From the NCBI GenBank assembly GCA_030765205.1, contig JAVCDB010000106.1, positions 906 to 64,905 of the forward strand: DNA of 64,000 nt, written 5' to 3'. The notes below the pieces were generated by a model. That model was not told the origin of the DNA, did no database searches, and saw nothing but the letters and a program-made list of their open reading frames with translations. Made by a program: the position numbers and the translations under genes. Below are positions 4,921-61,607 of this stretch, piece after piece (within the stretch, counting starts at the first letter, position 1; every line of letters begins with the position of its first letter). Source of the stretch: Candidatus Aadella gelida (GTDB taxonomy: Bacteria; Omnitrophota; Gorgyraeia; Tantalellales; Tantalellaceae).

Positions 4921-5718
4921 TTACCCTCCTGATATCTCTTTGGACCGATCCTTTGCCATCAATATAGCTTCTTTAATAGCAACCCCGACCTTCTTGTCAT
5001 TAAGAACATTAAGCGCAGATTCGGTAGTACCGCCTTTCGAAGCGACTTTATCTATAAGCTCACTGGGATTTGACCCTGAAGACATTAGAAAATTCCCTGA
5101 TCCTTCAATAGTTCCAAAAACAAGTTGTTTGGCCTTTTCAGCAGAGATTCCCATCTCTACACCGGCCTCTATCATCGCTTGAGCAAGATAAAAAAGATAT
5201 GCCGGTCCCGAACCCGACAAAGCCGTAACCGCATCCATTTGAGTCTCTTCTATCTCAACTACAGTTCCTATGCTTTTGAATATCCCGATAATAGCCTCTT
5301 TATGCTCGTCAGTGATGGAATCAGAAAAAGAAATGCCCGTAACACTTCTCCCAATAAAAGCCGCCATATTGGGCATAGCTCTAACAACGGGGACTTTTCT
5401 GTCTACATACCCTAATATCCCGGAAATATTTACCCCTGCCATAACAGACACTAATACCTGTCCGTCAAGTTTCCCTCTTAATTTTTCCATAAAATCTTGT
5501 GAATCCTGGGGTTTTATAGCAATAAGAATAACATCGCAATTACCAAGGATCTCATCTAGTCCCGCCGAAAAAGCCCCGATCTCCCCTGCAAGCTTGTCCA
5601 TCTTTTCTGCAGCTGCATCGTTCAAGAACACAGAGTCCGGCAAAAGGATATTATTCTTTATTATCCCCTGTACGATAGCTCTGCCCATGTTCCCGCAACC
5701 TATGACACCCAGTTTCAT
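4921..5718 (-). CDS. proC: Pyrroline-5-carboxylate reductase
   Basis: MKLGVIGCGNMGRAI Rossmann motif. Start moved to the internal ATG at 5716-5718; the longer track ORF runs through the upstream noncoding repeat. Confidence 0.85.
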   Translation of the reverse strand: MKLGVIGCGNMGRAIVQGIIKNNILLPDSVFLNDAAAEKMDKLAGEIGAFSAGLDEILGNCDVILIAIKPQDSQDFMEKLRGKLDGQVLVSVMAGVNISGILGYVDRKVPVVRAMPNMAAFIGRSVTGISFSDSITDEHKEAIIGIFKSIGTVVEIEETQMDAVTALSGSGPAYLFYLAQAMIEAGVEMGISAEKAKQLVFGTIEGSGNFLMSSGSNPSELIDKVASKGGTTESALNVLNDKKVGVAIKEAILMAKDRSKEISGG

Positions 5719-5922
5719 TTTACCCTGCCTTGTTTGACTATTTTCATAACTCAAGTCATTATATCTACAATGCTTCCGTACCTTTTTTGTGTTTTCTTGC
5801 CCTATACGCACCTTTGCCCACGAGAAGCAATGGTTAAAATTATCATAATCTATCCATTATGTCAAATAAGATTAATATATATAGAGGAACATCCAAATAA
5901 CTGTCCCTATGATCTTTATAAC

Positions 5923-6066
5923 TGTAACCCCAAGGGGTGAGTATTCCATCTTTTTTGTCGAAAAGTCGAAACACGGAGATTTCGACACACCTCGGACATT
6001 ACGTCCTCAGCGCCTCGTCCTTCGGACTGCGGAACTCGCTGCGAATACTCACCCCTTGGGGTTACA
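5923..6066. repeat. 144-bp element bounded by perfect 23-bp inverted repeats (gtaaccccaaggggtgagtattc ... gaatactcaccccttggggttac); MITE-like, or a cruciform/structured RNA
   Basis: Read directly: copy at 5923-5945, reverse complement at 6044-6066. The interior contains nested small hairpins (gtccttcggac with a UUCG loop, ggacattacgtcc). Confidence 0.6.
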
Positions 6067-6240
6067 AAGCTAGTGCACCGGGACGGGACAGCCACAAAAT
6101 TTTTGATATAATGATTCGAAAATACAGAAATATGAGAGAGCAAAATAGGAAGCCTGGGGGATTCAGTCCGCAAAGGCGGACCTTCCAAGAAAAGATAGCA
6201 TAGCATTCGGGGTTCAACATTTATCTACATATCAATCGCA

Positions 6241-6285
6241 TATCGGTCAATATGTGTCTATAGTCAATGGTCTATAGTCTACACT
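6241..6285. repeat. Solo terminal segment of the heptad MITE-like family (tctatagtcaatggtctatagtcta)
   Basis: Matches the right terminus of the elements at 26120-26170 and 28030-28075. Confidence 0.55.
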
Positions 6286-6301
6286 GGTAACTAGGGGCCA
6301 C

Positions 6302-7345
6302 TCAAAAATATCTGTCTAGGAAAGTAGTAACGACGTGGCCGGCTCTTTTCATGATACTATCGGACCTATTATACTTTTTTCTTTCATTATACAAATGATC
6401 GATAATGCCAAGTGTTCCAATATAACCTATTCTTTCTTGCGGCAATTTTTCAAAAGGGCGTACCGCGCATATTCCGTTTTTTGCGGGTAATCCAAAAACA
6501 TCTTCAATAGCTTCGATCGTTTTGTCAGGAACATCGCTTTCAGCGGTAACAAAAATCCTTCTGACATTATCAGATCCCGGAACATCTCTTACTTTGTCAT
6601 AAAGTTTTTGCAAAGCCCCCTGATCTATTTCATTCTCATTGACAATAATATCTTTCCCTCCTACCGGAAAAACGCGGCATCCTGACAGTACTCCACCATT
6701 AAAAACCATTACCTCGCTGATATCCTTTCTGATATTCAGAAGCATCGAACCCTTTTGCATATCTTCCTCGGAAAGTATCCTGTACGATGCCGCCAAACCG
6801 GAAAAAATGAACCCAGCTGGAACAAATCCCGCGTCTGAAATGCAGTTATGTACATTGCGAACGGCAGAGGATTTTATTGTGAGGATATTTATTTGTGATT
6901 CCAGTTTTACAGCTTCAAGATTAAGTGGGTTCTTGATCCCCACTTCACCGTCCACGATAAAATCCTGTATAATCCTGTGAAGAGGCTCCCTGTCAAGAGG
7001 TATACGTATTGTCGACGCTATTTCAACACACTTCCTTATGTCCCTATCTAATATCTCATGCCCATGCTTCGATATTAAGAGAGATCCTGATCCTGCCATC
7101 GCCTCAAGAGAAACCGAGCTGATCCCTGCATATATCTCGCGTATCCCACTATTGCCAAGTTTTTTAATGGCTTTACCCACAGTACGAATAGCTTCTGTCA
7201 TATCTGAAACAGTTCCCATAGAAAACCCATCGGAAGGCACACGAGAAAACCCGTCAATGGTATAGTCTCCATTCTTATTCCACCTTACAGCAACAGCCGT
7301 TAAATACGCATCTCCAATATTGATAGCAGCAAACTCTCTATTCAT
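6302..7345 (-). CDS. ftsA: Cell division protein FtsA (compact form, 347 aa)
   Basis: Actin-like ATPase; the blocks LHRIIQDFIVDG...GIKNP and FIFSGLAASY align with E. coli FtsA. The 2B region and C-terminal tail are shorter. Last gene of the dcw cluster. Confidence 0.8.
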   Translation of the reverse strand: MNREFAAINIGDAYLTAVAVRWNKNGDYTIDGFSRVPSDGFSMGTVSDMTEAIRTVGKAIKKLGNSGIREIYAGISSVSLEAMAGSGSLLISKHGHEILDRDIRKCVEIASTIRIPLDREPLHRIIQDFIVDGEVGIKNPLNLEAVKLESQINILTIKSSAVRNVHNCISDAGFVPAGFIFSGLAASYRILSEEDMQKGSMLLNIRKDISEVMVFNGGVLSGCRVFPVGGKDIIVNENEIDQGALQKLYDKVRDVPGSDNVRRIFVTAESDVPDKTIEAIEDVFGLPAKNGICAVRPFEKLPQERIGYIGTLGIIDHLYNERKKYNRSDSIMKRAGHVVTTFLDRYF

Positions 7346-19066: not shown

Positions 19067-20731
19067 TTAATTATTAGAGTCTAAATACTGCAAAGTCCTT
19101 TCGACTATGTTCTTGAATGCTGGAGCTGCAACAGTGCCTCCGTAATAAGCCGGATGAGGATTACTGGCAGTTACAACTACACTTATAGCAGGCTTTTCTG
19201 CCGGAGCAAATCCAATAAAAGTCGCATTGAATTTACGATCAAAATATCCGCCTTCAGGATTTACCATTTGAGCTGTTCCTGTCTTACCGCATATTTCGCA
19301 ATTCTTAGATCGCGCCCGTTTACCCGAACCGTGCGTAACCACCCTCCTTAAGACATCTTTCATTTTATCACAAGTTTCTTTTTTTAGAACCTTACGTTTA
19401 ACATTTGGTCTAAATTCTTTATCAACGTCTCCTTCCCACGTAATGATCCTATCAACAACATACGGTGTCATAAGATATCCCCCGTTCGCTATAACACTCA
19501 CAGCGGAAACAAGCTGTATAGGTGTTACAGCTATCCCTTGACCTATCGGGATAGTGGTCATGTCACTCCTCGCCCATTTTGAAGGCACCCTGCTTATACC
19601 CGCGCTCTCACCCGGAAGACCTATCCCAGTTTTTTCTCCGAACCCGAACCTGCGGATATAATCATAAAACTTTTTCTTGCCAATTTTCTGAACCGCTTTA
19701 ACTGTCCCTATATTGCTTGACTTTGCTATAACATCACGAAATTCCAGAGTACCATAACCGTGTGAATCATGTAATACTCTACCTGCTATCTTATATTTAC
19801 CTTTCTCACAATATATTTTATCATCTAATGCAACTGCATTCTCGTTTATAACAGCACTCGCTGAAACTATCTTAAACACACTTCCGGGTTCATACATCTC
19901 AGAAATAGAGATATTCTTAATATCTTCCTTCCGGGCCTCATTAAAAACTTTCAAGTCATAATCGGGATAGTTAGCTATCGCCAATATCTTGCCCGATGAG
20001 GGATCCATTACAATCGCAGAGGCCTTATCAGGGTTGTATTTCTTCACCATCGCGAGAAGTTCTTCTTCAACTATGTACTGAATAACACTATCAATAGTTA
20101 AAATGATGTTTGAACCATTCTTTGGAGGTACATACCCTCTTTCATCCAGAAAAACCGTTCTTTGCTTAGCATCCCTAACAAAACTTCTTCGCCCGGCTTC
20201 GCCTTTAAGATAGGGATCCAGCTGAAGCTCGAGTCCTTCAAGGCCGTTATTGTCTATCCCCGCAAACCCAATTATATGTGAAGCAAGTTTGCCGTTGGGA
20301 TAGTTTCGTTTGCTTTCCTCAACAATATATATTCCCTTGAGCCGGGCATCCCTAACCTCATCCGCCTGTTTCTCATCTATCTTGCGTTTTATCCACACAA
20401 ACGCCTTGTCCCGGGAGAGCCGGTCTTTAAGAAGGTCTTTATCTATATCAAGGATATTGAATAGCTTCTCAGTCACTCCTTCAACATCCTTAATCTCTCT
20501 GGGATTAGAATAGATACTGGGGACATCAAGATTTATAGCCAGAGGGTCCATATGACTGTCAAATATGGACCCTCTTCTGGGTTCGATCTTTTGAGCGGAA
20601 GAATGCTGTTCTTCCGCCATCTTAATGAAGCGTTCACTCACGAGTATTTGAAGGTAAAATAATCTTATAAAAAGAAAAAAGAGCAGGGACATTGCCCCAA
20701 GGACAATAAAATATCGGCGGGTTTTATACAT
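19067..20731 (-). CDS. ftsI: Penicillin-binding protein (PBP3-type transpeptidase)
   Basis: N-terminal TM, PBP dimerisation domain, transpeptidase motifs (SxxK in SVFK, KTGTA). Confidence 0.88.
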   Translation of the reverse strand: MYKTRRYFIVLGAMSLLFFLFIRLFYLQILVSERFIKMAEEQHSSAQKIEPRRGSIFDSHMDPLAINLDVPSIYSNPREIKDVEGVTEKLFNILDIDKDLLKDRLSRDKAFVWIKRKIDEKQADEVRDARLKGIYIVEESKRNYPNGKLASHIIGFAGIDNNGLEGLELQLDPYLKGEAGRRSFVRDAKQRTVFLDERGYVPPKNGSNIILTIDSVIQYIVEEELLAMVKKYNPDKASAIVMDPSSGKILAIANYPDYDLKVFNEARKEDIKNISISEMYEPGSVFKIVSASAVINENAVALDDKIYCEKGKYKIAGRVLHDSHGYGTLEFRDVIAKSSNIGTVKAVQKIGKKKFYDYIRRFGFGEKTGIGLPGESAGISRVPSKWARSDMTTIPIGQGIAVTPIQLVSAVSVIANGGYLMTPYVVDRIITWEGDVDKEFRPNVKRKVLKKETCDKMKDVLRRVVTHGSGKRARSKNCEICGKTGTAQMVNPEGGYFDRKFNATFIGFAPAEKPAISVVVTASNPHPAYYGGTVAAPAFKNIVERTLQYLDSNN

Positions 20732-22015: not shown

Positions 22016-22301
22016 TTTTGATTCGTGATTCGTAAGTCGTGACTCGTGAACAGTAAACGGTGAATAGTTATCTGTTGACCATAGACTATTGACAATTGAC
22101 TATTGACCTTTCAATTTTCACAGCAGTCGATCTCTACCTTTTAGACTGTTCCCCGCATCAGTCCAACCTAACATTTAAACCTTTAAAACTTTTTACCCTT
22201 TTAAACTCATCATCACATCAGTCACTCTAGACTACCCTCTACCTTCTAGCTTCTACCAACTGCCCTCTATCCCCTAAAACCTATAACCTAACACCTACTT
22301 C
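22016..22301. repeat. Heptad MITE-like element, copy in orientation A. It has a tcgtgaN/cagtRaa heptamer array, a TTGACNA terminal inverted repeat, a conserved core (ccgcatcagtcc) and a cctaNaa heptamer array
   Basis: Read directly. The inverted copy lies at 23336-23577. Confidence 0.75.
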
Positions 22302-23335: not shown

Positions 23336-23577
23336 GGGGCGTTATTAGACTATAACCATTGACCATAGACAGAGAATGACCTATGTAGGATGAGTTTAAA
23401 AAGTTTTAAAGGTTTAAAGGTTAGGTTGGACTGATGCGGGGAACAGTCTAAAAGGTAGGGATCGACTGCTGTGAAGATTGAAAGGTCAATAGTCAATTGT
23501 CAATAGTCTATGGTCAACAGATAACTATTCACCGTTTACTGTTTACTGCTTACTGTTCACGAATCACAAGTCACGAC
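23336..23577. repeat. Heptad MITE-like element, copy in orientation B (inverted relative to 22016-22301)
   Basis: Its core is the reverse complement of the 22081-22200 core; it ends in a cagtaaa/cgtgaat heptamer array. Confidence 0.75.
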
Positions 23578-25946: not shown

Positions 25947-25975
25947 ATGAATTTTTATACGATAAGAAGAATGAA

Positions 25976-26170
25976 CCGTTATCTGTTGACCATTGACTAT
26001 TGACTATTGACCTTTCAATTTTCACAGCAGTCGATCCCTACCCTTTAGACTGTTCTCCGCATCAGTCCAAACTGACCTTTAAACCTTTAAAACTTTTTAA
26101 CCTTTTAAACTGTCCTCACATCTGTCATTCTCTGTCTATAGTCAATGGTCTATTGTCAATAGTCTAATAA
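25976..26170. repeat. Heptad MITE-like element; complete compact copy (orientation A) with both terminal inverted repeats
   Basis: Left terminus gttgaccattgactattgactattgacc; right terminus, as reverse complement, ttattagactattgacaatagaccattgac. Core contains ccgcatcagtcc. Confidence 0.8.
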
Positions 26171-27094: not shown

Positions 27095-27475
27095 GGGATA
27101 TAAGGTTTTAGGTTTTAGGTGCTAGGTTTTAGGGGTTAACATTGACCGATGAGTTGTTAGGGGCTAGGGTTCAGGGGAGAAAAAGTCACCAGGTCACCGG
27201 TGATTGGGGCGTTATTAGACCATTGACAATAGACCATTGACTATAGACAGGGAATGACCGATGTTATAATTGAATAATAGAAAAAAGAGAGAAATGACGG
27301 TAGACTATGGAGTAATATTTTTTGTTAAGAGATCTTTAAAGGTCAATAGTCAATGGTCAATGGTCAATGGTCAACAGATAACTATTCACTATTTACTGTT
27401 CACTTTATACTACACTCTATATTCTAAAACTACAAACTATGAACTACCCACTACTAACTATCATCCTACATATCT
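27095..27475. repeat. Heptad MITE-like element (orientation B), with a ggttttA/ggtgctA heptamer array, terminal inverted repeats and an actaNNa array
   Basis: Segments at 27095-27262 and 27335-27475. The internal segment is the reverse complement of the 27935-28010 interior. Confidence 0.7.
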
Positions 27476-27855
27476 CTTACTTTGGAAGGAACGGGAACGA
27501 CCTTTCCGGCTTTATCTATGAAAGCATGTTTAGTATATCCCATTGAGGTAGTCTTTCCCTCTTTGGTGACTTCATATTCAAAAGTTATACGTGACTTTCT
27601 TATGTCTGTCATTATGGCTTTCACTTTTACAATATCATCATATCTGACAGGAGAACGGTAACGGCATTGAGCCTCCGTTACAGGAAGAAAAAGACCTTCC
27701 TCTTCTAGACCTTTATAACACATGCCGTTTGCTCTGAACATCTCCGTTCTTGCTATCTCGAACCAGACAAGATAATTCGCATAATATACAAATCCCATCT
27801 GATCGGTTTCTTTGTAGTTTACTCTATGCTCTATAGTGTGCTCCCTCATGATCAT
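27466..27855 (-). CDS. Acyl-CoA thioesterase (hotdog fold, YbgC/4HBT family)
   Basis: HRVNYKETDQMGFVYYANYLVWFE motif. Start moved to an internal Met (27853-27855) because the longer ORF N-terminus is encoded by the repeat. Confidence 0.75.
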   Translation of the reverse strand: MIMREHTIEHRVNYKETDQMGFVYYANYLVWFEIARTEMFRANGMCYKGLEEEGLFLPVTEAQCRYRSPVRYDDIVKVKAIMTDIRKSRITFEYEVTKEGKTTSMGYTKHAFIDKAGKVVPVPSKVRDM

Positions 27856-27887
27856 CCTTTTGTCGTATAGCGTAACTAGTAATCTGC

Positions 27888-28075
27888 GATCAGTAAACAG
27901 TGAACGGTTATCTGTTGACCACAGACAATTGACTATTGACAATTGACTTTTAAAGATCTCTCAACGAAAAATATTGTCCATAGTCTACTGGCATTTCTCT
28001 CTTTTTTCTACTCTTCAATCCCAACATCGGTCATTCTCTGTCTATAGTCAATGGTCTATTGTCTATAGTCTAACA
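27888..28075. repeat. Heptad MITE-like element (orientation A); forms an inverted pair with 27095-27475 around the thioesterase gene
   Basis: cagtaaa heptamers, TTGAC terminal inverted repeat, ...tctgtctatagtcaatggtctattgtctatagtcta. Confidence 0.75.
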
Positions 28076-38490: not shown

Positions 38491-38659
38491 AAGAAGGAAA
38501 TCTCAAATAATTATGAATAATAACGAATAAAATACCGCAATAAATAAACGGGTTAGTTATTAAAAACCAAGAACACATCTTATATTATCCCCCCACCCAA
38601 GTCAATATATATATTAAAATAAATGCCACACTTTCAAGCCCAATTTCCCTTGACAAAAT

Positions 38660-39300
38660 AATAGCCCCTTCGTCCGAATTTATTGTCACTACCATTATCG
38701 GAAACCGAGGCAAAGCCAAGGTTTCAAGAACGTCTGGGGCCACCTTTAAACACAAAAAAGGGGACAGTTGCCCTCACAAATTCGCAAACGGTACAAAATA
38801 GGGACATATGCTGAGTAATTGAACCTTTGTCAGAGTTTATTGTCGTTATTATTATCGGAAACCGAGGCAAAGCCAAGGTTTCAGGGTAGTTCCGTGTACA
38901 GCAAGGGGAAACCGAGGGCGAAGCCCAAGGTTTTAAGATAGTTCACGTGTACGGTGAGGGGATACCGTGTTACTCTTCCCTGCTACACTTACAGGTTCCC
39001 ACGAGCTCGCTCCGATGTTTGCGAGGAAAACTTTCTGGAAAGCTCGGTTTTCAGAAAGTTTGACGACCAAACATCAAAAAAAGGCAACTGTAAACAGTTG
39101 CCTTTTTGCCATAATTTTTCGAAGAAAAATTATGGAACGAGTGAGGGGAAACCGAAGCCACAGGCTGAGGTTCCCACGAACTCGCTGATAATGTTTGCGA
39201 GGAGAAATTTTAGAAAAGCTTGCTTTTCTAAAATTTTGACGACCAAACATTAAAAAACCCAAGTGCAAACCACTTGGGTTTTACCAACTTTTCCCTGAAA
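38660..39300. repeat. Array of degenerate direct repeats derived from the 3' half of the adjacent tRNA-Gly. It includes a 60-bp duplication (38668-38727 and 38824-38887) and two tandem ~150-bp paralogous units (38951-39110 and 39137-39282), each ending in a hairpin plus T-run
   Basis: Read directly: cgagtgaggggaaaccgaagccacaggctgag versus the tRNA's cgagtgaggggaatcgaacccccgtagccagc. Terminator hairpins at 39083-39108 and 39257-39282. Confidence 0.65.
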
Positions 39301-39303
39301 AGT

Positions 39304-39377
39304 TGGAGCGAGTGAGGGGAATCGAACCCCCGTAGCCAGCTTGGGAAGCTGATGTACTACCATTGTACTACACTCGC
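39304..39377 (-). tRNA. tRNA-Gly (anticodon CCC), CCA encoded
   Basis: Hand-folded: acceptor GCGAGTG/CACTCGC, D-stem GTAC/GTAC, anticodon stem TCAGC/GCTGG with loop TTCCCAA, T-arm GGGGG-TTCGATT-CCCCT, discriminator U, CCA. Confidence 0.8.
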
Positions 39378-39399
39378 CCACTACTCTCTTTATCGGCAG

Positions 39400-40302
39400 T
39401 TATCTATAAAACTTAGTAAGCCTCTCAAAATGCCGATACCTTTTATCAAAATCTTCTCTTTTAACTTTAGCCAAGTTCTCCGCACTAAACTTCTCAACCG
39501 CGAACGAGGCCAATATAGTACCGTACACTAAAGATCTCCTCAATATCTTATCACTGATCTTTTTATGTCTCGAAAGGTATCCCATCATCCCGCCGGCAAA
39601 AGTATCTCCGGCACCCGTAGGATCCTTGATCTTCTCCAAAAGATATGCCGGCACGACAAACTGTAACTTCGGCGAAAAGAATAGCGCGCCATGCTCGCCC
39701 TTTTTTATAACTATCATTTTCGCGCCTTTATCGGCAATATATCTCGCAGCTTCGAACAGGTTCTTTTCTCCGGATAACTGACAAGCTTCAGCATCATTCA
39801 GCAGAAAAATATCGACTTTTTTAAGTAACTTTTCAAGCTCTTTCTTCTTGTGTGTGATCCACAAATTCATCGTATCACATGCTACGATCCCTTTAGGATT
39901 CATCTTCTTAAATATCCATCCCTGCAGCTCCGGATCGATATTCGCCAACAGTAAATTGCTTTTCCGATTGATTGTATCGGGAATATTAGGCAGGAACCCT
40001 TCAAAAACGTTTAGATGCGTGCTTAGGGTCTCCGCATGACTTATATCACGATACCGCGCTTTCCACCTAAAAGTCTCGCCTTCCTTTATCTCTAGCCCGG
40101 AGACACCTATTTTCCTTCTCTTCATCATGACTATATGTTTTTTAGGAAAATCAGTTCCTACCACACTGATAAGCTCGACAGGAGAAAAAAACGAAGCACT
40201 AACCGACGCATAGGTCGCCGATCCACCAAGTATATCTTCATTTTTCCCGAAAGGCGTCTCAATGTTATCCAATGCCACAGAACCGATAATGTTCAACCCC
40301 AT
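39400..40302 (-). CDS. PfkB-family carbohydrate/nucleoside kinase
   Basis: C-terminal DPTGAGDTFAGG motif. Start moved to the internal Met so that it no longer overlaps thiC. Confidence 0.75.
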   Translation of the reverse strand: MGLNIIGSVALDNIETPFGKNEDILGGSATYASVSASFFSPVELISVVGTDFPKKHIVMMKRRKIGVSGLEIKEGETFRWKARYRDISHAETLSTHLNVFEGFLPNIPDTINRKSNLLLANIDPELQGWIFKKMNPKGIVACDTMNLWITHKKKELEKLLKKVDIFLLNDAEACQLSGEKNLFEAARYIADKGAKMIVIKKGEHGALFFSPKLQFVVPAYLLEKIKDPTGAGDTFAGGMMGYLSRHKKISDKILRRSLVYGTILASFAVEKFSAENLAKVKREDFDKRYRHFERLTKFYR

Positions 40303-40304
40303 AC

Positions 40305-45544: not shown

Positions 45545-45560
45545 ATTTTTTCTCCTGTAG

Positions 45561-45747
45561 TCGTGATTCGTAATTCGTGAACAGTAAACAGTGAACAGTG
45601 ACCTGTTGACTATTGTCTATTGACAATTGACCTTTTTAACCCGTTCTCCGCATCAGTCCGATCTGACTTTTAAACCTTTAAAACTTTTTAACCTTTTAAA
45701 CTGTCCCCATATCGGTCATTCTTTGTCTATTGTCAATAGTCTAATAA
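45561..45747. repeat. Heptad MITE-like element; the cleanest copy (orientation A) showing 7-nt periodicity from end to end
   Basis: tcgtgat tcgtaat tcgtgaa cagtaaa cagtgaa cagtgac ctgttga ctattgt ctattga caattga ... attgtca atagtct aataaca. Confidence 0.8.
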
Positions 45748-45802
45748 CATCCCCCGTCTTTCTTCCTTCTGATCTCTATAACCTATACCCTGAACCCTAT
45801 TA

Positions 45803-50462: not shown

Positions 50463-50539
50463 TTCATTCCCCTTCGTACTGTTAATAGTGCACTAGTATG
50501 GATATGATTATTATATGGTAACGTGGTGCGGAGGTAAAG

Positions 50540-50760
50540 AAATATTCGTACAATAAGATTGTAAGCAGTAGGCGGGGTTCTAACCCAGCCTACCATCAGT
50601 AAATGACTACGTACGAGTAGCCGGGGTTTAAACCCCGGCTACTGTTGTGGATAACTACGAACAAGGCAGCTCCCCTTAATACTGTTAACAATAAATGGGT
50701 TATAGTTACGAGTATTATATGACAACGCAGTGCAGAGGTAAAGAAATAAAGGTGTAGATA
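50540..50760. repeat. Noncoding region with two paralogous palindromes (gtaggcggggttctaacccagcctac and gtagccggggtttaaaccccggctac) bracketed by a direct repeat (atggtaacgtggtgcggaggtaaagaaata...)
   Basis: Read directly. No ORF. GC-rich relative to its surroundings. Confidence 0.55.
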
Positions 50761-51035
50761 TGTTCTTTTTTAGGAGGCGCCGAGAACGCGACCGAGGGAC
50801 ACCGTTCCCGAGGAAGTGCAGAGGGTAGAGATTCTCTGCTAATGTCCGAGACGAATGAGGATATAACTTATGGAGCTATAGCGAACATAAGTTATAAATC
50901 CGAATTTGGATCGAAATCTCCCGATTTCGACGTTTTGAAAGTCAGATTGATTTGAACCTTTGGGCATTTCCCCTGGGGACAGGTTTGGGAACAATTTCGG
51001 AAACGTCCCTATCTCTACGCCTATCTTTATGTTCC

Positions 51036-58938: not shown

Positions 58939-59048
58939 GATCCATCCTTAAAATAAACTTAACCTACAAAATACTTAACTTACTTAACTATTTCTCCAGT
59001 AAAGTATATTCCTGTAAGGCAAATATGTCAAGTGTAATAGTTTGTAGT

Positions 59049-59340
59049 TGGGGGATGTTATTAGACTATTGACTATAGACCATCACTATAGACAGAGAAT
59101 GACCGATCCTTCTTCGCTGCTTGAAGACTAAAAAGAGGGTACAGCTTCGAAGAGACAAGTGTTTAAGAACAGTTTAAAAGGTTGAAAAGTTTTAAAGGTT
59201 TAAAATTCAGATTGGGCTGATGCAGGAAACGGTCTAAAAGGTAGGGATTGACTGATGTGAACAGTGAAAGGTCAATAGTCAATAGTCAATTGTCAAGGGT
59301 CAACAGATGACCTTTCACTATTCACTTTTACTGATCGTGC
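59049..59340. repeat. Heptad MITE-like element (orientation B), the longest interior variant
   Basis: ttattagactattgactatagac...cagattgggctgatgcaggaaacggtc...ggtcaatagtcaatagtcaattgtcaagggtcaacag. Confidence 0.75.
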
Positions 59341-59378
59341 TATACGCTATACTACATATTCTATACTAATTGCGACCT

Positions 59379-61406: not shown

Positions 61407-61488
61407 ATTATACCAGTTTCATTAATTAATTTATCCTTTTACAGTGGCCTTGCCGCATAAAACCATTTTTTTGCATATGCTATAGCAG

Positions 61489-61572
61489 GTTTTAGGTTCT
61501 AGGTGCTAGGTTGTAGGGTTATATTACCTTCCCTATAACCTAAAACCTAGCACCTAGCACCTAACACCTAAA
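61489..61572. repeat. Imperfect palindrome of ggtNNta heptamer arrays (ggtttta ggttcta ggtgcta ggttgta ... tataacc taaaacc tagcacc tagcacc taacacc)
   Basis: Read directly. Related to the heptamer array at 27100-27140 and to the 22270-22300 end. Confidence 0.7.
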
Positions 61573-61607
61573 CTAATTAATACAATTGGTATTAAGTGTT
61601 TCCGCGG

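Follow-up and report, generated by a model that had tools for sequence, protein, structure and literature searches.

The 64-kb stretch of contig JAVCDB010000106.1 analysed here (the window) belongs to the uncultured Antarctic-lake bacterium Candidatus Aadella gelida (Omnitrophota), known from a metagenome-assembled genome, and includes a 144-bp palindromic element in the spacer between ftsA and proC. The genes flanking the element are all on the minus strand: the division and cell wall (dcw) cluster runs from mraZ to murC-murB-ddl-ftsQ and ends in a gene coding for a 347-aa FtsA-like protein (6302–7345), beyond which a spacer of 490–572 bp is followed by proC-yggT-yggU-PNP-ileS. The palindrome is located 236 nt past ftsA and ~35–60 nt ahead of a conserved proC promoter, in the orientation opposite to the neighbouring genes. 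It is the hairpin body of one copy (copy A) of a lineage-restricted, previously undescribed family of intergenic hairpin repeats, palindromic sequences that fall outside any named family.

The order ftsA, a 376–481-bp spacer, and proC is kept in three relatives (L019, L020, and L021), with FtsA proteins 46–57% identical. The initial annotation referred to the position of the element as an ex-ftsZ site, which is apt as a description of place, in that proC follows ftsA here and in three related genera, and goes too far as anything beyond that. The spacer with copy A is identical in five metagenome contigs. In the ftsA-proC spacers of L019, L020, and L021 there is no homologue of the palindrome and the proC promoter is the sole conserved piece. 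At the place equivalent to copy A, L021 has a canonical terminator, and a scan of the Aadella spacer revealed none between ftsA and the proC promoter; elsewhere, the same genome uses canonical terminators with an A-run, a stem, and a T-run.

The inverted repeat and the repeat unit

The two arms of copy A are 24 nt each, are complementary at all 24 positions, and are separated by 96 nt; the perfect 23-bp terminal inverted repeat of the initial annotation is thus real, with one further T/A pair. No shuffle reproduced the inverted repeat, and when up to three mismatches are allowed the annotated 23-mer matches only the two arm sites in the window (none expected, from 100 shuffles). A 161-nt region folds at -74.4 kcal/mol on the plus strand and -77.8 kcal/mol on the minus strand (z of about -10 and about -9, respectively). 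The interior had been described as GC-rich and full of small hairpins; it is GC-rich (53%, compared with 32–43% for the remaining spacer and 41% across the window, the element as a whole being 52%), but its structure is modest when folded alone (z -2.2 on the plus strand and -1.0 on the minus strand). The string CCCCAAGGGG at the centre of each arm, thought to be palindromic in itself, has CCCCTTGGGG as its reverse complement and is better seen as CCCC and GGGG around an AA spacer; a small internal palindrome is present in each Aadella arm (CCCC-AA-GGGG, ACCC-AA-GGGT, and CACTC-AA-GGGTG). The string GUCCUUCGGAC, taken for a UUCG tetraloop, forms four base pairs capped by a triloop of UUC; the closing pair of a C(UUCG)G loop would meet a C.A mismatch there.

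Two mirrored open reading frames (ORFs) of 96 and 88 aa lie over the palindrome and are artefacts, as was already suspected. Neither has a Pfam match, a six-frame translation of the element has no homologue among 5.8 billion proteins, and the 96-aa ORF compared with 1.84 billion representatives gave one spurious tandem-repeat match and nothing else. The 88-aa ORF is not similar to the 86-aa ORF at the same place in L020.

The complete unit in Aadella spans ~190–290 bp and consists of a left flank, the 24-bp stem, a core with a tip hairpin, the second strand of the stem, a right flank, and sometimes a tail (Table 1). The closing stem is 24 bp in copies A, C, and D and 22–27 bp in copy E, with a few extra pairs beyond; across the complete copies its length is 22–29 bp. 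The conserved core is composed of CTCARACAGTCCTCG, a short tip hairpin, and CTGCGGAACTCGC, and in the plus orientation of the window reads CA(T/G)CTCA(A/G)ACAGTCCTCG, a short hairpin, and CTGCGGAACTCGC(TG). Within it the 12-mer TGCGGAACTCGC is exact in copies A, C, D, and E, and thus in two genera with FtsA proteins that are 57% identical. A long-form insertion between the start of the 5' core and the remainder is common to copies A and B and absent from C, D, and E, and is treated by the covariance model as a 65-nt local insertion.

The repeat unit does not end at the arms, because homology continues outside them. Within Aadella it extends for ~25–40 bp on the left (AACWGTCCCTAWRAT......AAC) and for ~115 bp on the right, where the flank has the consensus RAGCTAKTGC..GGGACGGGACA; window positions 6013–6181 match copy D and its surroundings (L025 12596–12774) at 68% over 183 nt (E 7.5e-15), and the hairpin at 6166–6181 covaries with GTCTGC/GCAGAC in copy D. 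An outer helix is predicted in copy A, in which CTGTCCC of the left flank (5901–5907) can pair with GGGACAG at 6085–6091. No direct repeat of 2–10 bp surrounds the arms (...TATAAC, TGTAAC...GTTACA, AAGCTA, with the commas marking the arm boundaries) or the wider unit. The extended -10 box annotated just downstream of the palindrome (6104–6112) is present, as TG followed by TATAAT, and the promoter scan gives 10/12 matches with GGGACA as its partner; the conserved flank covers only the -35 part of this promoter-like site. The same scan found no promoter inside the interior of copy A.

Copies B, C, and D were identified by nhmmer with window positions 5896–6095 as the query, and are carried by L025, a 31-kb Logan contig from the same genome that includes the first gene of the window and adds 9.3 kb outside it. 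Copy E is in another Omnitrophota genus, the nearest relative. All of the copies are extragenic, and B, C, and D begin at most 10 nt past the upstream stop codon. Aadella has a copy at ftsA-proC and none at ftsQ-ftsA and L019 has the reverse; the copies have therefore not been inherited in place, and have been gained and lost. In the clade with copies the FtsA-like protein is short, and ftsZ is missing from its usual place in the dcw cluster. We note that L025 stops at 19942, inside the long-form insertion of copy B, which fits an assembly break at a repeat and hints at more long-form copies elsewhere in the genome. The missing right half of copy B would be expected to contain a 3' arm that is the reverse complement of TGTCACCCAAAGGCGGGAGCATTG.

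The initial annotation had proposed that a 23-mer found nowhere else would mark a single-copy relic. The window and three public collections indeed contain no further instance of the 23-mer, but the single-copy verdict is wrong, as four other, diverged copies of the element exist. An exact search with the 18-mer core of the arm returned single chance matches with unlike flanks in 185,579 reference genomes and a JGI metagenome set and no match in IMG/VR, collections that do not include the window's contig; no 18-mer of the arms is common to two copies. BLAST comparison of the element with phages and plasmids found nothing relevant, and a core-motif scan of viral contigs gave at least 120 matches, at chance level, with the 5' core in none. 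When the covariance model was run over 133 kb of Omnitrophota DNA it recovered A, C, D, and E and no further member.

A possible degenerate relic of the long form ('copy 2') lies in another long spacer of the window, where it shows weak collinear similarity and provided the first hint of further copies. It carries CTGTCCC, CCCAAAGG, and GTCGAAATCGGGAGATTTCGAT, followed further on by the exact 11-mer CTCGGACATTA (50850–50840), and is without the long stem. It matches at 72% over 57 nt by BLAST, a score equalled by 2 of 500 shuffled queries, and has nhmmer E-values of 0.03–0.04; at the same place L024 has a spacer of only 172 bp, from which the relic is absent. A weak match of the long-form profile to L024 2401–2441 (minus strand; E 9e-4), inside the M16-peptidase gene, falls at the GTCGAAA...TTTCGAC hairpin and is probably due to chance.

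Table 1. Locations of the hairpin repeat copies, the parts of copy A, and a second repeat family. Positions are those of the window unless a contig is named.
Feature	Position	Strand	Remarks
Copy A	5923–6066		Between ftsA and proC; long form; 5' arm TGTAACCCCAAGGGGTGAGTATTC, paired 24/24
Copy B	L025 19849–19942		Directly after rodA; nhmmer E 2e-14; cut by contig end
Copy C	L025 18482–18640		Between mrdA and rodA; nhmmer E 5e-12; 5' arm TGTAACCCAAGGGTACGAGTGTTC, paired 21/24
Copy D	L025 12595–12670		Between rluD and murA; nhmmer E 8e-10; 5' arm TGTCACTCAAGGGTGCAAGTGTTC, paired 24/24
Copy E	L019 3886–3984		Between ftsQ and ftsA; found with profile of Aadella copies, E 1e-6; 5' arm CCAGACAAGTTCTATGGTATTC, paired 21/22
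'Copy 2', possible degenerate long-form relic	50909–50994	-	Just past M16-peptidase gene; marginal lead
Copy A, conserved left flank, outside arms	5881–5922	+	Aligns with left flanks of B, C, and D; A-B homology from 5881
Copy A, 5' arm of long closing stem P1	5923–5946	+	TGTAACCCCAAGGGGTGAGTATTC; pairs 24/24 with 6043–6066; covaries with 3' arm across copies
Copy A, start of 5' core, CATCT	5947–5951	+	CATCT in copy C, CAGCT in copy D (alignments)
Copy A, long-form insertion, ~55 nt	5952–6005	+	GTCGAAA...TTTCGAC hairpin and GGACATTACGTCC hairpin
Copy A, conserved core	6006–6042	+	CTCAGCGCCTCG 6006–6017; tip hairpin P2 GTCC-TTC-GGAC 6017–6027; CTGCGGAACTCGC 6027–6039; TGC 6040–6042
Copy A, 3' arm of long closing stem P1	6043–6066	+	GAATACTCACCCCTTGGGGTTACA; pairs with 5923–5946
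Copy A, conserved right flank AAGCTAGTGCACCGGGACGGGACAG	6067–6091	+	Aligns with C and D; GGGACA doubles as -35-like hexamer of downstream site
Promoter-like site GGGACA-16-TATAAT, TG extension	6085–6112	+	Points away from hairpin, antisense to ftsA 3' end
Further stretch homologous to copy D	6113–6181	+	Ends in hairpin GTCCGC-AAAG-GCGGAC, 6166–6181
Second repeat family, copies in window	22096–22230, 23346–23500, 25960–26160, 45545–45802, 58939–59378, 61407–61607		
Second repeat family, inverted pair	27225–27420 and 27870–28070		Around ORF 27466–27942
Second repeat family, partial copy	6220–6293		~155 bp from palindrome
Second repeat family, relatives	L019 3819–3852, 5376–5408; L027 4188–4226, 10986–11022		

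Covariation of the stem

Variation between copies is greatest in the arms, where 25–60% of positions differ (5–13 of 22–24 columns), and the interior core is identical. Between copies A and D there are eight paired columns that differ; all eight are changed on both sides and none on one side only. The four complete copies (A, C, D, and E) were aligned with the insertion of copy A removed and the register set by hand to the stems. In this alignment 95.1% of cells are in standard pairs, compared with 78% after shuffling and 33–43% with slid partners, and 17 of the 37 pairs change on both sides, a count reached by none of 500 shuffles. The tip hairpin P2 covaries too (GTCC/GGAC, GACC/GGTC, GTCCC/GGGAC, and CCCCC/GGGGG; alignment pairs 43–80 and 44–79). 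G-U pairs are too few to single out a strand.

The stem acts as a nucleic-acid hairpin, because the arms vary and yet both sides change together: it is constrained as a stem, in a folded single strand of either RNA or DNA, and the arms are not protein-recognised terminal repeats. The initial annotation had held that perfect pairing is more typical of a recently transposed miniature element or a recombinase site than of an RNA helix, an argument that fails here, as across the copies the stem behaves as a structure-constrained helix. This is a clean natural case of the two arms of a 24-bp helix co-evolving while perfectly paired. It also follows that an exact match to an arm is the wrong test of copy number when arms covary, and that the right probe is the core (TGCGGAACTCGC, CAGTCCTCG) or a covariance model.

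Resemblances and rival explanations

We give about an even chance to the reading that the element is a non-autonomous, duplicating hairpin repeat, similar to REP/REPIN or Correia elements, that resides in spacers at the ends of genes and operons. REPINs, which are REP doublets mobilised by RAYT tyrosine transposases (PMC3116915), are likewise extragenic, ~100–150 nt long, and composed of two inverted arms, which in single-stranded DNA or mRNA fold into a long hairpin; they too are multi-copy, persist in lineages, lack a target-site duplication, and show compensatory changes, which are frequent in REPIN hairpins (PMC3116915). A genome with REPINs has a cognate RAYT (Y1/HUH transposase) gene, usually with REPs on either side. 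REPINs differ in that the 16-mer REP ends are invariant and the spacer is variable, whereas in the present family the arms vary and the core is invariant; moreover, the present copies are far more diverged from each other and have conserved flanks outside the hairpin. Correia elements of Neisseria (CREE/NEMIS; PMC2649163) measure 70–157 bp and have ~26-bp inverted repeats and a conserved, directional core, and the Aadella family is alike in these respects. Further shared features are the existence of a short and a long form, set apart by an internal segment, and locations in spacers beside genes, including those of the dcw cluster. Correia elements can create promoters at their ends (PMC2649163), and copy A lends the -35-like GGGACA to the promoter-like site with TG and TATAAT; Correia transcripts are RNase III substrates (PMC2649163), and cleavage or binding of hairpin transcripts by RNase III would be a further likeness that we infer for the present family. 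In contrast, Correia repeats are conserved in sequence in hundreds of copies and have a TA duplication, whereas here the arms are variable, a TA duplication is ambiguous, and the family has no sequence similarity to Correia elements. Imperfect palindromes are also known from enterobacteria, as the REP/BIME and ERIC sequences of 3' untranslated and intercistronic regions, where they stabilise the mRNA upstream or reduce read-through. REP stems are however much shorter and ERIC sequences are conserved, and neither has an asymmetric core within a variable 24-bp stem.

If the element is such a repeat, the stem would be required as a stem, in single-stranded DNA or RNA, with its sequence free to change provided that both arms change together. 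What keeps the arms perfect may be selection for the hairpin, template-switch correction of the quasipalindrome while the DNA is replicated, or a combination of the two. Transcription of the element would produce at least 24 bp of perfect double-stranded RNA, and perfect helices of 24 bp are cut by RNase III and block exonucleases. To judge from the position of the element, the folded transcript could mark an operon boundary, as a site for RNase III processing or as an obstacle to 3'-exonucleases or read-through. A read-through dcw transcript would contain the helix of copy A, because copy A lies 236 nt past ftsA with no canonical terminator between.

Several points weigh against the duplicating-repeat reading. 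No transposase of any kind was noticed in the ~80 kb of the genome examined, where no dedicated search was made, and the pattern of conservation is the reverse of that in REPIN and Correia elements, in which the ends are conserved. Copies within one genome are 20–35% diverged, with no sign of recent bursts, and the six assemblies are all identical, with no polymorphism between empty and filled sites. The four clear Aadella copies are all in one 15-kb stretch, with none detected by the covariance model in the other 58 kb of the window, and local segmental duplication would explain this clustering no less well than transposition. The DNA examined contains no RNase III gene. The counts of covarying pairs, in turn, rest on the four complete copies and on an alignment fitted by hand to the stems.

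A functional structured RNA is the main alternative, though a tentative one, in which the family would be a multi-copy small RNA or a cis-regulatory RNA, the loop and tip would be functional (as a protein-binding platform, for example), and the stem would be a scaffold; it may use its own promoter in the left flank and may be tied to envelope and division genes. A conserved core together with stems that vary and covary is what such RNAs classically show, and the core is identical across two genera despite the divergence of their FtsA proteins, although evolving RNA helices are not usually Watson-Crick paired throughout (24/24) and almost free of G-U pairs. A -10-like hexamer (TATGAT, TAAAAT, or TATAAT) is positioned exactly 9 nt before the base of the stem in copies A (TATGAT, 5908–5913), B, and C, and copy C has a 10/12 promoter match in its left flank, but the -35 elements of A, B, and D are poor. 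The interior of copy A folds better on the family strand, and the covariance model favours that strand by 37–63 bits for C, D, and E and by 12 bits for A, a preference to be expected anyway from an asymmetric core. All five copies neighbour peptidoglycan or division genes (ftsA, ftsQ/ftsA, murA, mrdA/rodA, and rodA); this association may reflect sampling, as the 15 kb examined is a cell-wall gene neighbourhood, and orientation relative to the genes on either side varies (sense for B, C, and D, antisense for A and E). The structured RNAs of Rfam 15 resemble the family in having conserved loops with covarying stems and differ in that no Rfam family matches: copies A, C, D, and E have no match at the gathering score, and relaxed E-values (<5–10) yield only noise. 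The conserved outer flanks and the long homology between A and D look instead like duplicated DNA segments. The more specific proposal, that this is a new Omnitrophota RNA class in which a perfect-stem hairpin presents CUCARACAGUCCUCG / CUGCGGAACUCGC as a discrete RNA acting on the expression of ftsA, murA, and mrdA-rodA, appears doubtful.

Copy A could also serve the dcw operon as a transcription terminator or an insulator with an unusually large hairpin, the other copies being terminators of other operons with shared ancestry, and we regard this as unlikely. It sits where L021 has its canonical terminator, between ftsA and the proC promoter, with no other terminator-like site in the spacer; B, C, and D directly follow stop codons, and on the gene strand the outer helix is succeeded by UUAUUUGG. 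Nonetheless, neither strand has a U-tract next to the 24-bp stem, the nearest T-runs being 9–30 nt off, the terminator scan is negative at A, C, and D in a genome that otherwise uses canonical terminators, and termination does not require a conserved, asymmetric core or conserved flanks. The copies are also present in the mrdA-rodA and ftsQ-ftsA gaps, and these gene pairs are normally co-transcribed. The initial annotation leaned towards a recently transposed miniature inverted-repeat transposable element (MITE) or a recombinase site; the sequence is a repeat element and not a gene, but it is no classical MITE, and nothing backs a recombinase site. As a MITE it would be a deletion derivative of an insertion sequence with a DDE transposase, recently inserted, possibly at TA, with the 23/24-bp arms as the terminal inverted repeats to which the transposase binds. 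Such an origin is very unlikely, even though the element is small, non-coding, multi-copy (four copies in 15 kb and the possible relic), flanked by AT-rich DNA, and absent from the orthologous spacer of the relatives, and its ends read TG...CA, with TA at 5925–5926 and 6063–6064 that could be a TA duplication hidden inside the palindrome. The arms differ at 5–13 of 24 positions between copies while the core is conserved, the opposite of protein-recognised repeats, and no parent insertion sequence was found, the 18-mer arm core having only chance single matches in collections without the host genome. Covarying arms, homology that runs well beyond the arms, and the lack of a direct repeat flanking either the arms or the wider unit together all but exclude a MITE of the classical DDE type.

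The idea of a substrate for site-specific recombination, either an invertible segment or an integron-type attC site, is in our view highly improbable. Inverted repeats do bound a short segment, and the arms of attC sites are likewise variable yet complementary and lie downstream of ORFs, but there is no recombinase or integrase gene nearby, the interior lacks a promoter, and its orientation is identical in six independent assemblies. The attC motifs RYYYAAC/GTTRRRY are replaced by CTGTAAC/GTTACAA in copy A and CTGTCAC/GTGACAG in copy D, and the neighbours are housekeeping genes and not cassettes. A retron non-coding RNA was rejected, the neighbours being ftsA and proC with no reverse transcriptase, and readings as a tRNA or tmRNA, an inverton, or a LacI-type operator were rejected on anatomy.

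Neighbouring spacers and wider significance

The genes and spacers around the element have several other features. The FtsA-like protein is short, with 347–350 aa in the window and relatives compared with the usual ~410–440 aa, and its Pfam match is to the SHS2_FTSA insert domain only. In four genera ftsA is followed by proC and not by ftsZ, and no tubulin signature is present within the window; a published survey reports general conservation of the dcw genes in Omnitrophota (PMC12283558). The proC promoter-like block, TTGACAT-N13-TATGATAATTTTAACCATT, is located at 5865–5829 on the minus strand, and is nearly invariant in four genera (L019 5433–5473; L020 ~5420–5460; L021 ~5368–5405); its conservation past the hexamers (TTTTAACCATT) points to a site for a regulator or to a conserved 5' end. 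The GTG at 5811 is probably not the true start of proC; a start at ATG 5729 gives a 269-aa protein, near the 264–265 aa of the relatives.

The ftsA-proC spacer seems to gather different repeats in different lineages. In L021, positions 5157–5307 resemble a small RNA gene (fold z -5.3), with the extended -10 sequence TGTTATAAT and a strong canonical terminator (CCGGACTGTCC...GGGCAGTCCGGTTTTTTTT) ~135 nt further on, and in L020, positions 5045–5240 contain GC-rich tandem units (GGCAAGCCCTTCGGCTTCGCTCAGGGCAAGC...) under the 86-aa ORF, which is spurious. A second intergenic repeat family, unrelated to the hairpin repeats, is ~130–230 bp long and 70–91% identical, and is bordered by arrays of 7-nt units (GTCWATR, e.g. 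GTCTATAGTCAATGGTCTATAGTC). It has at least eight occurrences in the window and is also present in another Omnitrophota genus (Table 1).

Two other non-coding stretches of the window contain repeats. Upstream of a Memo-like (AmmeMemoRadiSam B) gene, at 50463–50760, a module of promoter and 5' leader is doubled (50497–50544 and 50701–50748, 81% identical) and there are two related hairpins, one of which is a perfect 28-bp palindrome (50616–50643); L024 has one module in its 172-bp spacer. The second is a long non-coding stretch at 38491–40304 around a single tRNA gene (39307–39377, minus strand), with several palindromes, direct repeats of ~169 nt at 76% and of 68 nt at 85%, and terminators with an A-run, a stem, and a T-run at 39078–39107 and 39254–39282.

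Omnitrophota are uncultured, and almost nothing is known of their non-coding DNA. The covarying arms of this family are relevant to the question of whether palindromic repeats persist through selection on a hairpin or through template-switch correction. If the copies are mobile, they would point to an unrecognised hairpin-dependent mobilisation system in Omnitrophota; if they are RNA elements, they would mark regulation at the boundaries of cell-division and cell-wall operons.

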